From an uncultured Verrucomicrobiae bacterium (GTDB lineage Bacteria; Verrucomicrobiota; Verrucomicrobiia; Limisphaerales; JAFGQR01): a stretch of 64,000 bases of DNA. The position numbers and the translations under genes are program-made. Below are positions 20,003 through 27,123 of this stretch, piece after piece. The DNA is taken from contig CAWBHS010000017.1 of assembly GCA_963788655.1 (NCBI GenBank), positions 14,353 to 78,352 of the forward strand. Reading direction: 5' to 3'. The notes below the pieces were generated by a model that saw only the letters and a program-made list of their open reading frames with translations, was not told the DNA's origin and searched no databases. The number at the start of each line of letters is the position of its first letter. Position 1 is the stretch's first letter.

Positions 20003-20205
20003 TTCAGCCCGGCAGGGCGATAGAGAATAGCCCACCGATTTATGGGTGGGAACGAAAGTTCAGCCCGTTGAGTCCCGTCAGGGACGATAGAGTGCATTGC
20101 CGAGCACTTCAATGCTCTGCCGTCCCTCCGGGACTTGATACCCTTTGGCCTACTTACCCATGGTTGAAACCGTGGGCTATTCTCGAAGGTCCTTGCAGGA
20201 CTGAA
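20003..20205. repeat. ~200-bp composite inverted repeat (REP/MITE-like)
   Basis: two inverted copies of the unit also seen at ~9977-10062. Confidence 0.72.
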
Positions 20206-22867: not shown

Positions 22868-23077
22868 TTGCTCCTGCAAATCCCACCACTTCCAATGGCC
22901 GTCTGCGTTAAGCTCCCAAACAAGCTTCCGCTCGCGGCAATGCCACGTGCCAGCCATCGACGCCATCGAATTCGCCGAGGATGGAGAAATGGCGAGGGCG
23001 GCTGGCTCCTCTGTCGTGTGAGGCGTGGCACAACCGCACAGAAGCACTGCAAGGAAATACGATGCGATGCATTTCAT
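22868..23077 (-). pseudogene. cassette 7 gene: lipoprotein-like, 3' truncated
   Basis: MKCIASYFLAVLLCGC lipobox-like start 17 nt after intron end; runs into intron remnant. Confidence 0.6.
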
Positions 23078-23094
23078 GGCGCGTGCAAAGTGGG

Positions 23095-23911
23095 ACCGGG
23101 TAGGCGTAGGCGGTCACCCGCCCACGCCCCCCTAAGAACCGGACTTGAAAGTTTCCCTTCATCACGGCTCAAGCCTCTCCAAGGCCACCCCGGATGCGGG
23201 GGACCCGCGTAACCAGGAGGCCGGTGACACCCAAAGGCGTCATGGACCTTCCCAATCCCACTTGGCAATACCGGTCGGCGGCCATATCGCGCCCGGCTCC
23301 TTTGGGCCGCAGCACCGAGAGGCACCAAGCGACGGGCGTCGCTCGTCCTATGCTTCTCTCGCTTGAAGGGGTTCCGCTGATTTTCTTGCCAGGAGACACC
23401 AGATCGACGTGGGCATATCCGGTCCATTACCGACCGGCCTTGGCTTGTTCGATCCTCTTCATGCTGCCTCCCCTGGGCCTGCCTTGCGGTCGGCTTGCCT
23501 GGATACTCTCCAGGCGGGAACTGGCAGCTTTTCCATGTTCCGCATTCTCCACAGGATGGGTTAGGTCCACTCTGTACACCGGCGGTGCGCCATTCGCGTC
23601 GGGCTACGTTAGACAGCCCGAACTTGACCGCTGGCCTTCTTTTGGCCGGAGCCTTAAAACAGCCTCGTATGGCTCGTTCCTCTGACGATGCTTGCGAGTG
23701 TTCACGTGGGTTGACCCTACCATCCAATTCTAGCGCCGCACCCGGATTGAGGCTCCCAGGCTGGCTACATTGTCGGGAAGGCTTCACACCCTGGACAGTA
23801 GCCTTACGGCCGCCCGCCCAACGCATGCTTCCCTGGAATACCTGCCGCGAAAGGCAGGACTGAGTCAGGTTGCCCATGCTCAGCAGTGATGAATGCGACT
23901 TCATGTCACAA
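23095..23911 (-). mobile_element. ORF-less (internally deleted) group II intron, IIB-like, inserted in attC R' core
   Basis: 5' TTGTGACATG; domain V GAGCCGTGATGAAGGGAAACTTTCAAGTCCGGTTC; domain VI ending CCTACCCGGT; EBS1 hairpin tcgggctg-TCTAACG-tagcccga; no RT motifs. Confidence 0.9.
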
Positions 23912-24032
23912 CCAACGCCGAGGTGAGCGAGGGCTGCCGGCAGCGCCCGCTCGACTGTGAAGAAAACGGTGGAAGAACCCGGTGCTCCCGCTGCCAGACG
24001 GGGCAGCCCTTCGCTCTACCGACTGGTTGGGC
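23912..24032 (-). mobile_element. attC site 6 (R' interrupted by intron)
   Basis: R'' GCCCAAC matches cassette start GTTGGGC; long imperfect palindrome; R' GTTGG|CC. Confidence 0.85.
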
Positions 24033-24042
24033 ATTCTCGGTT

Positions 24043-24634
24043 TCATTTTGGTGCTGCGCTGGCTTCCCTCGCGAGGCGTTTGCGAATCGCCGCCAAGCTC
24101 TTCTCGTTCTCCTCGTCGGGCCACAACTCGTAAGCGCGAAGGAACTGCCTCTCCGCATTTGTAACGTCGCCCAATCCCAGATAGATGCTCCCGAGGTAGG
24201 CGTGTCCGTAATAGTAGTTGGGCTGCTTGGCGACCAACTGTTGCGCGAGGGACAGCGCAGTCTGGTAATCCAGACGGTCCATCGCGGCGCTTACCTCGCG
24301 CCAGGGACGCGCCGGCGACTGTTGCGGCGTTGTGCGCGACTCATCGTAGCGGTCTCGGTCGTGGCGAAGTATGGCCATGTAAACAACTGCCCCAGTCAAA
24401 AAAACTGCGAGGAACCATGTCTGAAGCTGTCCGATCTTCCTGAACTTCTGTAGCTCAGTCAATATGCCCGCATTGATGTTGTCGCTCCTGGCAGGTGGTG
24501 GGGACCGGAAATGCGTCCTGCTCGGGCTATCGATAGGGGGCACCCTCAGCAGCAGGCTCGAAACACGTTCCACATTCCGAGCAATGCAAGGACTCCTCTG
24601 GGTTCTCACGTCCGCAGTAGTCACACCGTTTCAT
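24043..24634 (-). CDS. cassette 6 gene: zinc-ribbon + TM + TPR protein (frameshift at G-run near 24538)
   Basis: MKRCDYCGREN...HCSECGT N-terminus; GHAYLGSIYLGLGDVTNAERQFLRAYEL TPR. Confidence 0.7.
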
Positions 24635-24654
24635 ATTTGCCCCTGAATGATGTT

Positions 24655-24750
24655 GCCCAACGCCGAGATCACCCATGAGCGGCATCCCAATACCGCTCAA
24701 ATTCTAAACCGACGTGCTTGCCGCTCATTGGGTGAATCGATTGGTTCGGA
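24655..24750 (-). mobile_element. attC site 5
   Basis: R'' TCCGAAC ... R' GTTGGGC; stem cacccaatgagcggca/tgccgctcatgggtg. Confidence 0.88.
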
Positions 24751-24751
24751 T

Positions 24752-25057
24752 TCATTTCGTCTCTTTCAGGTCAGGCTGATACTGGGTGTCGATCAAATCA
24801 TAATCCCTGCGGATGCGAGACAATGGATCCTGGTCTGGGAGGATCCGTCTCGAATTGGGCAACATCTTCGCTGGGTCAGCAGGGGGCAGCGTGAGATGGA
24901 ATCTCTGCGTCTGAACCTGAGTGAAGGTGAAGACTGGTCCAATTGGGGCACGCCTACTCGAAGTGGTCTGAGAAGGTACAAGCAGGCAAAAGCAAAGCAC
25001 GAATCCCCCACAAAATCCGGCTAGTCCCCAAAGTATATGTTTTGATCTGGCATTCAT
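24752..25057 (-). CDS. cassette 5 gene: small membrane-anchored hypothetical protein
   Basis: ORF fills the cassette; stop directly before R''; N-terminal TM. Confidence 0.65.
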   Translation of the reverse strand: MNARSKHILWGLAGFCGGFVLCFCLLVPSQTTSSRRAPIGPVFTFTQVQTQRFHLTLPPADPAKMLPNSRRILPDQDPLSRIRRDYDLIDTQYQPDLKETK

Positions 25058-25084
25058 AAAATGCGGGCGACGGATGCTTTTGTT

Positions 25085-25211
25085 TCCGAACAACCAAGCT
25101 CACCGATCCGCGCCGGGCGGGACGGTCGAGCGTGAAAGAAACGATGGAAAAACCAACTGAGCAACGAGCGGAGGATCGGGGCGCGGATTCGTGTGCAGCG
25201 CTTGGTTCGGC
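25085..25211 (-). mobile_element. attC site 4
   Basis: R'' GCCGAAC ... R' GTTCGGA; stem atccgcgcc/ggcgcggat. Confidence 0.88.
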
Positions 25212-25482
25212 GTTTGATGAGATAGCTGTGGACGCTGCTCTAAGACGGATAAGGGCAACCCAAAACGTCGAAGACCAGACCGGTCGCTACAAATACCCAG
25301 ACTGCGCAGATGTGCTGGCCGCAGAAGTCGAACGCCTGCGATCTGTCTCCGAAAAGCAGCAGTGGCGGATAACCAGCCTACAACAAGACATGCGCACGAT
25401 AATGGACGTTACTCGATGGGAACACCAAGCGCACCAGATCGCCAAGCGCGCTCTGACGCCGAACAACCAAGCTGAGCGATGA
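25132..25482 (+). CDS. cassette 4 gene (antisense to array): small coiled-coil hypothetical protein, phage-like
   Basis: starts in attC4 (GTG 25132 or ATG 25144), stops in attC3; LAAEVERLR coiled coil. Confidence 0.65.
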   Translation: MKETMEKPTEQRAEDRGADSCAALGSAFDEIAVDAALRRIRATQNVEDQTGRYKYPDCADVLAAEVERLRSVSEKQQWRITSLQQDMRTIMDVTRWEHQAHQIAKRALTPNNQAER

Positions 25483-25555
25483 GTGCCCCATCCCAAACTC
25501 CCGAACTGCCAATCAGCGTGGCGGGGCACTCATTCGCTCCAGCGCCTGGTTCGGC
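25458..25555 (-). mobile_element. attC site 3
   Basis: R'' GCCGAAC ... R' GTTCGGC; stem atgagtgcccc/ggggcactcat. Confidence 0.88.
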
Positions 25556-26141
25556 GTTCAGGTGTGTGATGGCCGACCCGCCGTGGCAACTGACGATGCG
25601 CGGCAAACGCAAGCGCGCCAAAGAGCCAAACCTGCCGGAATCGCTACCGTATACGACGATGACTCTGGACGAAATCTGCGCTCTGCCAGTCGGTGAACTC
25701 TGTGCTGATGACTGCCACTTGTGGCTGTGGACTACCAACCAACACCTGAGAGACGGCTTTCGGGTAATGGAGGCGTGGGGCTTCCGGTATCTCGCGCCCG
25801 TCCACTGGATAAAACCGAGCGGCGTCGGCAACTGGTTCGTCCACCGCACGCAGACAATACTGATGGGATACAAGACCCGATGCCGCTTCGAGCGCGCCCG
25901 CTACCGGCCAAACATCGTGACGACTGGCGACCCGAAGCGGCACAGCGAGAAGCCGGAGGAAACATACGCGCTCATCGAATCTGTGAGCAGCGAGCCACGG
26001 CTGGAAATGTTCGCACGCCGGAAGCGTCCCGGCTGGCAGTCCTGGGGCAACGAAGTCACCAGCGACGTGATACTGACGCCGAACGTGGAGGTCACCGACC
26101 GGCAGAAAACCAGAAAGGAAACGGATGCCAAACAAACATGA
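25479..26141 (+). CDS. cassette 3 gene (antisense): MT-A70-family adenine methyltransferase
   Basis: MADPPW, HLWLWTTN, AWGF.Y..WIKP, HSEKPE, LEMFAR.RPGW..WGNE. Confidence 0.92.
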   Translation: MSAPSQTPELPISVAGHSFAPAPGSAFRCVMADPPWQLTMRGKRKRAKEPNLPESLPYTTMTLDEICALPVGELCADDCHLWLWTTNQHLRDGFRVMEAWGFRYLAPVHWIKPSGVGNWFVHRTQTILMGYKTRCRFERARYRPNIVTTGDPKRHSEKPEETYALIESVSSEPRLEMFARRKRPGWQSWGNEVTSDVILTPNVEVTDRQKTRKETDAKQT

Positions 26142-26186
26142 AACTGACACGCAGGCAGCCGGTTCGCGTGAACCGATTGGTTCGGT
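26078..26186 (-). mobile_element. attC site 2
   Basis: R'' ACCGAAC matches cassette start GTTCGGT; R' GTTCGGC. Confidence 0.85.
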
Positions 26187-26493
26187 GATCCCGGCCCCGT
26201 GGGGTGGCATGGAATGGAAACATGCCTTGATGGCTCGAAACCTAATGTCATCCCGAAAATGGATATGCCGGACCGAGTGGGGGCGTGAATTTGTTATTGC
26301 GTTCAAAGAACCGGGTCCAATTGCGCTACTCTGCATTGAGGATCGGCTGTGGCCAGTTAAGCCGTATTCACCGAACGTCCCGGATCACCGACCGCCGCCG
26401 GAAACGGGCGCTGGCAGCGAATCCAGCGTCCAAAGTATGCGGTGCGTCCTAACCGAAGTGCGGGGCGGCGGTTCGAGTGAATCCGATTGTTAG
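26125..26493 (+). CDS. cassette 2 gene (antisense): small hypothetical protein
   Basis: AAAGGAA RBS and ATG inside attC2; reads through attC1 to TAG in its R'' core. Confidence 0.55.
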   Translation: MPNKHETDTQAAGSREPIGSVIPAPWGGMEWKHALMARNLMSSRKWICRTEWGREFVIAFKEPGPIALLCIEDRLWPVKPYSPNVPDHRPPPETGAGSESSVQSMRCVLTEVRGGGSSESDC

Positions 26494-26495
26494 CC
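26370..26495 (-). mobile_element. attC site 1
   Basis: R'' GGCTAAC matches first core GTTAGCC; R' GTTCGGT; stem accgccgcc/ggcggcggt. Confidence 0.88.
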
Positions 26496-26496
26496 G

Positions 26497-26970
26497 TCAT
26501 CGTTCTAAAAGTGGTAAATCCTTCCGCGCATCTCTAACGTAATCCTCCAACGTGGTCACTCGCTTGATGTAGTCAGGATCACTAAGCATACCCTTCAAAG
26601 ATGCCAGCATCCGCAAGGACCAATCACATCGAACCAACTCCTCTCGGTGTGACTCTGAATACTTGATAATTACGCGAGCAAGAACAGACATCCTCTCAAG
26701 GTCCTGTTTGTCTGCTGTCTCGTTGAGCTTCCGCAATTCCGTCAGGCTCGACTCAAGACTCATGATGCCGTGGGCGCGCAATTCGTCTGGGGTGTCCTTG
26801 TAACCGGGCTTGTCCATGACCTTATCCGCCGCTTTCATAGTAGTCACAGCGTCCACCGCAGAAGCGTAATAGCTCTGATAAAGTGCTCGACGACACTGGG
26901 AATGTCTCTGGCACCCTTGGCAAAGCAGCAACAGCGTAAGAAATGTGACTGATAATCTCATGGCGGCCAC
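26497..26970 (-). CDS. cassette 1 gene: putative lipoprotein
   Basis: MRLSVTFLTLLLLCQGC lipobox-like start; lower GC; fills the cassette exactly. Confidence 0.75.
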   Translation of the reverse strand: MAAMRLSVTFLTLLLLCQGCQRHSQCRRALYQSYYASAVDAVTTMKAADKVMDKPGYKDTPDELRAHGIMSLESSLTELRKLNETADKQDLERMSVLARVIIKYSESHREELVRCDWSLRMLASLKGMLSDPDYIKRVTTLEDYVRDARKDLPLLER

Positions 26971-27006
26971 GGCTAACTATAATTATGCGGAACTGAGTTC
27001 CGCATA
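26971..27006 (-). mobile_element. attI-like site
   Basis: core GTTAGCC with no cognate R''; AT-rich spacer and palindrome TATGCGGAAC-tca-GTTCCGCATA. Confidence 0.65.
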
Positions 27007-27123
27007 TCATGGGTTACACCCAGGCAGAATGACCGGATTTGTGGCCTCGGAGTTCCGCTTTTCATGGAGCCATTCCCAAGCCTCTCCGCCGGTCCTAATG
27101 GTGGTTTCCGCCACATATCGGCC

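Follow-up and report, generated by a model that had tools for sequence, protein, structure and literature searches.

A 64,000-nucleotide stretch of a contig (C17) from an uncultured Verrucomicrobiae bacterium, here called the window, carries an array of integron attC recombination sites in which three adjacent gene cassettes hold their genes, open reading frames (ORFs) 1–3, on the strand opposite to the direction of the array. We consider it the best explanation, with a probability of roughly 0.6, that these are three independently mobile and compact reverse-oriented cassettes whose genes run from core to core, starting in their own attC and stopping in the next. Within each cassette, the bottom-strand cargo gene would take up all the space between the R'' core of the cassette's attC and the R' half-core that closes the unit. 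Its start codon would be part of the attC belonging to that cassette, in either the loop or the stem, and would move along with the cassette, and its stop codon would be in whichever attC follows on the + strand. Because the cores of this lineage (GTTCGGC/GCCGAAC) contain no ATG, TAA or TAG, the start codon would be placed further back, within the cassette's own attC; a stop supplied by the next attC would give a short, disordered, context-dependent tail, and with three such cassettes side by side each stop would fall on or just after the next start. Read against the direction in which the array itself is transcribed, the genes would then line up like an operon. We attribute this line-up to the order of the cassettes and not to inheritance as an operon, and its expression would need a + strand promoter or read-through.

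The array occupies window 23911–27019. No match to PF00589 or TIGR02249 was obtained on contig C17, and with TIGR02249 and tyrosine recombinases thus absent from the contig and no integrase beside it, the array is a cluster of attC sites lacking integron integrases (CALIN). Its hairpins are long and imperfect, beginning CCGAAC (or CCCAAC, ACCAAC) and finishing GTTCGG (or GTTGGG, GTTAGC). Six sites fit the attC consensus of 5'-RYYYAAC-3' and 5'-GTTRRRY-3' cores around a variable centre, with CCG in place of YYY; the attCs of the array share one orientation, have ORF-sized bodies between them and recur in the genome. A home-made covariance model, distinct from that of IntegronFinder, was built on the + strand from an alignment of these six sites and scores them at 82–102 bits; since they are its training set they match by construction, and only other matches count as independent. 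Such support comes from about 110 further matches elsewhere in the genome. With 150 candidates scored, the model matched 92 at E ≤ 1, and its 124 matches in 339 kb of the genome fall in 119 distinct places, 99 of them with the standard AAC and GTT triplets, from which 66 cassettes were defined. The genome is rich in attC arrays; at family level, the search took in one other genome. Three matches above the TIGR02249 cut-off, two of them with a stop codon, place integron integrases elsewhere in this genome (contigs C59, C49 and C69).

The initial annotation had read the array as running against the three genes, and this polarity is borne out in several ways. According to Nivina et al. (2016), an attC hairpin has its extrahelical bases facing the triplet when the bottom strand is folded, whereas in the top strand they share an arm with it; the bulges of VCR2 are at positions 16, 20 and 24. 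Folds of the + strand carry one to three single-base bulges on the 3' arm, facing the AAC triplet, as in attC E with its three bulged bases and 3-bp stems between them. The model scores attC C at 81.9 bits on the + strand and 21.5 bits on the minus strand. On C49 the integrase gene and the attC matches to the right of it share the minus strand; on C59 the integrase gene and the attC matches to the left of it share the plus strand. Assuming the usual divergent layout, the model strand is therefore the bottom strand on both contigs. Minus-strand ORFs of the other cassettes in the window terminate exactly at R'' cores. Finally, C59:60299–60599 is identical to window 26077–26377 at 301 of 301 nt. 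The identity comprises attC D and the ORF3 body from core to core, beginning 2 nt before the CCGAAC of attC D and stopping 1 nt past the AAC of attC E. These bounds define the mobile unit as attC D plus the body on its right; in minus-strand reading, the body comes first and its attC second. Both ends of this natural duplicate lie within 2 nt of the predicted IntI crossover, between AA and C, and contigs from other studies that match the neighbouring cassette stop at 26085. The + strand is hence confirmed as the bottom (recombined) strand and ORF1–3 as antisense to the array. Matching R'' to the first six bases was also tried as a test of polarity and discarded, as the matched pair flanks a body under either model.

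Each of the three bodies is open from core to core in exactly one + frame, and none has an internal start or stop able to serve the whole domain. The + strand ORFs that had been described from the sequence (25132–25482, 25479–26141 and 26125–26493) are all present; they enter their bodies as ..LGSAF.., ..PGSAF.. and ..IGSVI.. and leave them as ..TPNN.., ..TPNV.. and ..SPNV.., as claimed. Each of the three own attCs has an in-frame ATG from which the frame stays open as far as the core, as do 21 of the 99 attCs genome-wide. The loop of attC B carries GAAAGAAACG-ATG (25144). In attC C the putative stop of ORF1 and ATG of ORF2 overlap as ATGA at 25479–25482. In attC D an AAAGGAA is followed after 4 nt by the ATG at 26125, 17 nt before the end of the ORF2 stop (26139–26141). 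The PN-frame TGA noted earlier in attC B is likewise present near the start, at 25158–25160, 14 nt after the ATG; it does not overlap the start codon, as had been stated, and has the same position relative to the ORF1 ATG as the ORF2 stop has relative to the ORF3 ATG, ORF2 and ORF3 overlapping by 17 nt. A purine-rich, Shine-Dalgarno-like stretch followed by ATG, 11 nt and TGA occurs among the 99 attCs only in the loops of attC B and of both copies of attC D. That starts would lie in a cassette's own attC and stops in its neighbour's agrees with the open bodies, with the ATGs of the ORF1 family and with P0001, the closest cassette relative of the methyltransferase encoded by ORF2, which has no Met between the core and its DPPW motif.

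C-terminal tails change with context, as the initial annotation had supposed, and C17 and C59 provide natural examples. After ..SPN, the ORF3 cassette continues for 39 residues in the window, where it passes through attC E as far as a TAG in the R'' core of that site, and for 16 residues of another sequence on C59. Conversely, two ORFs, the methyltransferase of the window and another, short one on C59, receive an identical 18-residue tail from attC D. Those relatives of the methyltransferase that exit as ..xN have tails that are all different.

The cargo of the middle cassette, ORF2, matches Pfam family PF05063 over profile positions 1–172 of 172 (4.4e-31; 108.5 bits against a cut-off of 23.9) and PHROG 359, 'DNA methyltransferase' (2e-48). 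Among 1083 candidates, 1035 are relatives at E ≤ 0.001. Judged by its sequence, ORF2 is a full-length MT-A70 methyltransferase, with predicted activity. The contigs of two other sediment metagenome studies match only window 25533–26085, with 22–23 differences, and end at the R' core, which is thus the right boundary of this cassette in other contexts. The 17 differences listed fall 14 times at codon position 3, three times at position 1 and never at position 2, a bias showing that purifying selection acts on the protein encoded by the cassette. The first strand before DPPW starts directly at the core. Among the matches listed, members of the family start no more than 12 residues before the DPPW-type motif in 58 of 113 cases and end no more than nine residues after WGNE in 42 of 121. 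The nearest free-standing relative, on an IMG/VR contig (L089), is 84% identical and is a gene complete with start and stop codons. Its sequence opens M-N-A-P-S-K-F-R-C-V-L-A-DPPW and closes ..DVTL-stop, where ORF2 reads ..P-G-S-A-F-R-C-V-M-A-DPPW and ..DVILTPN and then continues; two attC cores therefore occupy the place of the free gene's first few codons and stop.

The same arrangement recurs in other taxa. The attCs that the model found near relatives of the methyltransferase (eight loci at E ≤ 0.01) are all on the strand of the gene, six of six at genome loci and 18 of 18 at viral-contig loci, and in all these attC-bearing loci the gene spans core to core. Some six sequence types with an inherited orientation point to an old reverse cassette family and not to independent events. 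Relatives of ORF1 and ORF3 are absent beside every other methyltransferase locus fetched: tblastn with their cores against these loci and the genome found only their own copies, just the ORF3 unit being shared with C59. The succession of ORF1, methyltransferase and ORF3 is not a conserved unit.

ORF1 takes its leader from attC B and a 5-residue tail from attC C. It has three relatives besides itself, whose identity of 79–89% extends from (G/D)SAFDEI to ALTPN, the leaders and tails outside it being unrelated; an in-frame ATG lies 17–20 codons before the core in four of the four family members. A structure model based on the four-sequence alignment has helices at residues 27–44 and 58–108, the second with a predicted local distance difference test (pLDDT) score of 88–97. 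Residues 1–25, encoded by the attC, have a pLDDT under 50, and both the attC-encoded leader and tail are predicted to be disordered. A sample of 400 genomes of the phylum yielded no ORF1, the one other match there (E 6e-4) being probably noise, and the family was not found in Joint Genome Institute (JGI) metagenome contigs.

The full 122-residue ORF3 matched only P0125, with which it shares just the leader. In a search of 1.84 billion representatives its 66-residue core has one relative, the 68-residue P0126 (E 4.1e-6; identity 36% across 64 residues), which extends over that entire core; the family, though thin, is therefore probably real. From a protein atlas neither a function for ORF1 nor a usable match to ORF3 was obtained, and no Pfam or PHROG family matched either of them. 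From the similarities found, ORF1 and ORF3 appear to be small conserved families of unknown function. An identical copy of attC D lies at C59:60301–60410. P0125, from an unrelated ENA contig of another sample, carries the leader of attC D, with 20 identities in its first 21 residues, followed by a Lar restriction-alleviation domain (PF14354; 39.9 bits, cut-off 28.6, residues 21–71) and then by ..SPN and a tail; the Lar domain likewise fills the interval GS..SPN. The same attC-type start thus serves at least two different cargos in the same frame. Nothing was found in JGI metagenome contigs with a 21-nt stretch of the attC D loop. The cargos had been described as phage-like and the cassettes as a class meant for expression in a phage. 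The link stands for the methyltransferase, through PHROG 359 and the free-standing IMG/VR gene, and is suggestive for the Lar-type cargo. No such link was seen for ORF3, which matches no PHROG family, or for ORF1, which matches none either and whose patterns found no relative in IMG/VR contigs, and a class meant for phage expression is not supported.

The proposal that attC supplies the reading frame was not supported in that form by comparison of the methyltransferase relatives, whose entry uses frame 0 or 1 and whose exit uses frame 0 or 2. A betaproteobacterial type (L041, L042, L046, L090 and L093) enters as CGT-GTT-ATG and exits as CAT-AAC, and the ATG of its GTTATGC core is able to serve as a start. 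L092 and L094 enter as GTT-AGG and exit as CCT-AAC, L102 enters as GTT-GGC, and L096, L109 and L114 enter in the frame used in the window, the last two terminating at the core's own TAA. A canonical GTTAGGC would give TAG in frame 0, a frame that 31 of the 99 R'' cores close in this genome. Core sequences, as far as these comparisons go, fit the frame used. Across the 66 tabulated cassettes of the genome, 13 have a bottom-strand frame that is open across the whole body. Five of the 13 combine GS entry with PN exit, against an expected 1/9 (binomial P 0.010), or four of 12 without the duplicate (P 0.036). Three of these five are the finding itself and the remainder is at chance (P 0.65). From the sequences at hand, the core-to-core reverse architecture appears general and the GS/PN frame no rule. 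Two homologous bottom-strand through-open ORFs (C59:3044–3350 and C9 minus 2181–2499, in oriented coordinates) have a common ..RWREAGYP.. motif. Their frames are (1,0), with entry in 1 and exit in 0, which again departs from the GS/PN combination, and they are probably another reverse cassette family.

The closeness of starts and stops raises the possibility that attCs have evolved as dual modules, being recombination sites in DNA and stop/restart units in mRNA, so that any order of cassettes would give a coupled bottom-strand operon. Each stop lies on the next ATG or 14 nt after it (the ATGA of attC C, and 17-nt overlaps in attC B and D), the loop layout of attC B and D is found in none of the other attCs, on C17 and C59 attC D is entered in the same frame by two different upstream ORFs, and its leader is found on a second cargo in P0125. 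A precedent exists in ORF-11 of attI1, which takes its stop from the core of the cassette and couples translation, as reviewed in PMC8876359. Against this, attC B and D are related by descent and count as roughly one case, the layout of attC C differs in having its ATG inside the stem, and the frames vary among relatives of the same methyltransferase cassette. The PN frame is in any case stopped in 60 of the 99 attCs, the combination of frames is at chance outside the finding, and the whole argument is drawn from sequence. Stop/restart coupling at these junctions is plausible on the spacing of the codons, and we regard the evolution of attCs as dual modules as unlikely.

Several observations weigh against reading the three ORFs as expressed, attC-started genes. 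An internal ATG of ORF2 at 25569, with AGGTG five bases upstream, is a possible start that would remove the strand before DPPW, and ORF3 could start at a GTG at 26185, immediately past the core. ORF3 depends on a single distant relative. A scan for the sigma-70 consensus on the + strand gave one match of 9 of 12 upstream of ORF1 (Table 1), and its three sites, against 1.7 expected by chance, are not evidence of function. The left flank carries only minus-strand genes, so that read-through from that side is unlikely. The RNA-library data consist of four short methyltransferase contigs of unknown strand, from a metatranscriptome that perhaps contains DNA. A codon-usage log-odds score trained on 946 long ORFs of the genome fails to separate cassette genes from antisense noise. 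With regard to the start of ORF2, the lack of a Met at the corresponding place in P0001 makes the attC start likelier than 25569. The same scan found no promoter-like site on the + strand inside 25091–26375, where the bodies are fully coding. The public runs hold only 5–12% of the sampled words, and the RNA-library contigs were not used as evidence of expression. On C59, two reverse cassettes close the array after a convergent + strand gene, which makes flank read-through one possible source of transcription there. Two approaches were abandoned: the codon-usage score as a strand caller (+13.9 for the methyltransferase and −8.9 for the forward lipoprotein-like ORF), and classes of ORF coverage, which took differing values for two identical copies of the ORF3 cassette. 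The best promoter-like match of the region (TTGACA-16-TAACAT, 10 of 12) is on the minus strand at window 27151–27124, just outside the proximal end and pointing into the array, and is a candidate Pc-like promoter of this integrase-less CALIN.

Alternatively, the three cargos could be a silent stock, captured backwards without signals and not expressed in this host, with frames held open by high G+C content and stop-less cores. The + strand scan that found no promoter would fit this, as would a genome of 59% G+C, in which long spurious ORFs abound, and the 13 through-open cassettes, most of which also have a good forward ORF. It is at odds with the third-position bias of substitutions between cassette copies of different studies, with the in-frame attC ATG kept in all four ORF1-family members against a background of 21%, and with an architecture kept in distant taxa. 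Together these features argue for expression somewhere, though not necessarily in this host, and make a silent stock distinctly improbable. The reverse polarity, with ordinary forward genes on the + strand and reversed ones on the minus strand, could draw on near-palindromic cores that by themselves cannot distinguish the strands, but it was tested and rejected on four counts, the facing bulges, the strand preference of the model at attC C and beside two integrase genes, the attC at the left of the duplicated unit and the minus-strand ORFs that finish at R'' cores all opposing it, and it is almost certainly wrong.

Table 1. Features of the attC array and related sites (window positions unless a locus is given).
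Feature	Position	Strand	Description
ORF1	25144–25482	+	First in-frame ATG 25144, GTG 25132; conserved core 25204–25464 (GSAF...TPN)
ORF2	25479–26141	+	Predicted MT-A70 N6-adenine DNA methyltransferase; domain residues 27–192; DPPW at 25575
ORF3	26125–26493	+	Core 26179–26376 (66 residues); leader from attC D
Cassette unit 4	25091–25463	−	attC B and body; bounds at AA/C crossover; cargo on + strand (reverse)
Cassette unit 3	25464–26083	−	attC C and methyltransferase body
Cassette unit 2	26084–26375	−	attC D and ORF3 body
attC F	23911–24034	+	92.5 bits; 3'-arm single-base bulges; own site of forward cassette 23916–24660
attC A	24656–24752	+	85.7 bits; folded; own site of forward cassette 24661–25090
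attC B	25086–25213	+	102.1 bits; own site of ORF1 cassette
attC C	25459–25557	+	81.9 bits; folded; own site of methyltransferase cassette
attC D	26079–26188	+	98.7 bits; own site of ORF3 cassette
attC E	26371–26497	+	96.2 bits; own site of forward lipoprotein-like cassette 26376–26976
Candidate short attC G	26971–27019	+	GGCTAAC ... GTTACAC; seen by eye; promoter-proximal end of array
Forward cassette ORF	26497–26970	−	157 residues; N-terminus lipoprotein-like by eye; ends at attC E R'' core
Forward cassette ORF	24752–25093	−	113 residues
Forward cassette	24043–24700	−	Zinc-ribbon ORF 24527–24700 and TPR ORF 24043–24624
Promoter-like match	24776–24804	+	CTGATA-17-CATAAT, 9 of 12; sole one upstream of ORF1
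CTCAGAGATGAG-starting attC	L007:4054–4152 (C59)		
CTCAGAGATGAG-starting attC	L008:7929–8051 (C27)		
CTCAGAGATGAG-starting attC	L005:13109–13245 (C49)		
CTCAGAGATGAG-starting attC	L033:1–110 (C48)		

The remaining features of the array are collected in Table 1. The body of cassette unit 4 is open in a single + frame and in no minus frame. Among the forward cassettes, the 157-residue ORF has no Pfam or PHROG match, the 113-residue ORF has a 63%-identical copy on contig C4 that is likewise forward relative to its attCs, and the zinc-ribbon and TPR assignments are weak Pfam matches under the curated cut-offs. The covariance model gave no match at candidate attC G (about 26971–27019), within which a terminator-like hairpin lies at 27006–26984. 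The integrase region of C59 (66134–68710) consists of two or three tandem integron-integrase-like frames, of 396.6 bits with one TAA and then of 114.6 and 223.5 bits, and the copy on C49 has a TAG. The genome, with its dozens of scattered attC clusters, thus has several integrases, some of them possibly broken.

Beyond the other end of the array, a group II intron without a reverse-transcriptase ORF lies on the minus strand at window 23095–23859 (RF02012 domains 1–4 at 23734–23859, 62 bits; RF00029 domains 5–6 at 23095–23172, 49.6 bits). It starts about 50 nt past the R' end of the last site, attC F, on the top strand of the array, and could be a relative of those group IIC introns that associate with attCs and have been linked to the making of cassettes; the minus-strand ORF at 23074–23904 (276 residues, no Pfam match) probably merely covers it. 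Four attC matches start with CTCAGAGATGAG in place of the YYNAAC core. That on C59 is the last site of its array, directly after a convergent host gene, and CTCAGAGATGAG may be a recurrent array-end or alternative partner sequence. A 47-nt stretch of the attC E loop (window 26385–26431) recurs in many short contigs of all four public runs searched and in several attCs of this genome (for example at L013, L005 and L012), and is the mark of a widespread attC subfamily with a conserved loop. Further away, window 20006–20202 has two sub-gathering matches to the Acido-Lenti-1 RNA (RF01687), of 34.3 and 26 bits, one on each strand and some 110 nt from each other.

Integron cassettes are commonly taught as promoterless forward genes read from Pc, with reverse cassettes as exceptions that have their own promoter. 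Three mobile core-to-core reverse cassettes would add a kind without signals of its own, in which the recombination sites are translated and give the start, the stop and part of the protein, and in which the C-terminus of the protein changes when the cassette moves. If this is general, the annotation of cassette genes would change, as starts in attCs are missed or miscalled; attC sites would gain a second function at the RNA level; and a gene cut precisely at both ends relative to its free-standing counterpart would provide a handle on how cassettes are generated. It would also point to a pool of anti-restriction genes inside integrons. More tentatively, these cassettes could be a distinct 'bottom-strand' class, in which the attC acts as a 5' leader with ribosome site and start, the neighbour's attC provides the stop and strings of cassettes become polycistrons on the strand not read from Pc. 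A phage-type orphan methyltransferase and a Lar domain among the cargos hint that such a class would carry anti-restriction or anti-defence functions, in which case ORF1 and ORF3 would be candidates for new functions of this kind.

Reverse cassettes (usually with their own promoter), the use of core sites as stops and an ORF in an att site that couples translation (ORF-11) are already known. A reverse core-to-core cassette with its start in its attC, its stop in the neighbour's attC and hence a C-terminus that varies with position was not found described in the full-text literature searched, which leaves supplements and most subscription journals outside. The array resembles integron cassettes in a CALIN in its attC hairpins with R and L boxes, bulges and a variable loop, in having one ORF-sized body per site, in the predicted crossover between AA and C, in the presence of the same unit in two arrays and in the integrases found elsewhere in the genome. 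It departs from the usual CALIN in its three adjacent bottom-strand cargos and in its GTTCGGC/GCCGAAC cores, the canonical ones being GTTAGGC/GCCTAAC. Reverse cassettes of chromosomal integrons, such as those encoding toxin-antitoxin systems, bring their own promoters. The cargos of the window likewise oppose the array and would be independent of Pc; unlike the toxin-antitoxin type, their bodies have no room for promoter, ribosome site, start and stop, all their translation signals would lie in attC sites, and their C-termini depend on the neighbour.

The TAA of the core RYYYAAC is used by some cassette genes as their stop codon. A comparable use is seen in L109 and L114, which stop at the TAA of the core, and in the betaproteobacterial type, which could start at the ATG of GTTATGC; the difference is that these genes are on the bottom strand, and that the cores of the window's lineage lack such codons, the signals lying deeper in the attCs. 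A further parallel is the translational coupling across a recombination site of ORF-11 and ORF-17 of attI1, reviewed in PMC8876359. As in ORF-11, a putative Shine-Dalgarno sequence and ATG lie in an att site, the ORF runs across the crossover and its partner supplies a stop near the next start. ORF-11 lies on the top strand of attI and is an 11-residue peptide that only helps the first cassette, whereas in the window the start would be on the bottom strand of attC and would open the cargo protein itself. Finally, ORF2 is similar to the orphan MT-A70 methyltransferases of phages (PHROG 359) in its full domain with DPPW and its close relation to the gene of L089; in the cassette form, however, two attC cores stand in place of the stop codon and the first few codons of that free-standing gene.

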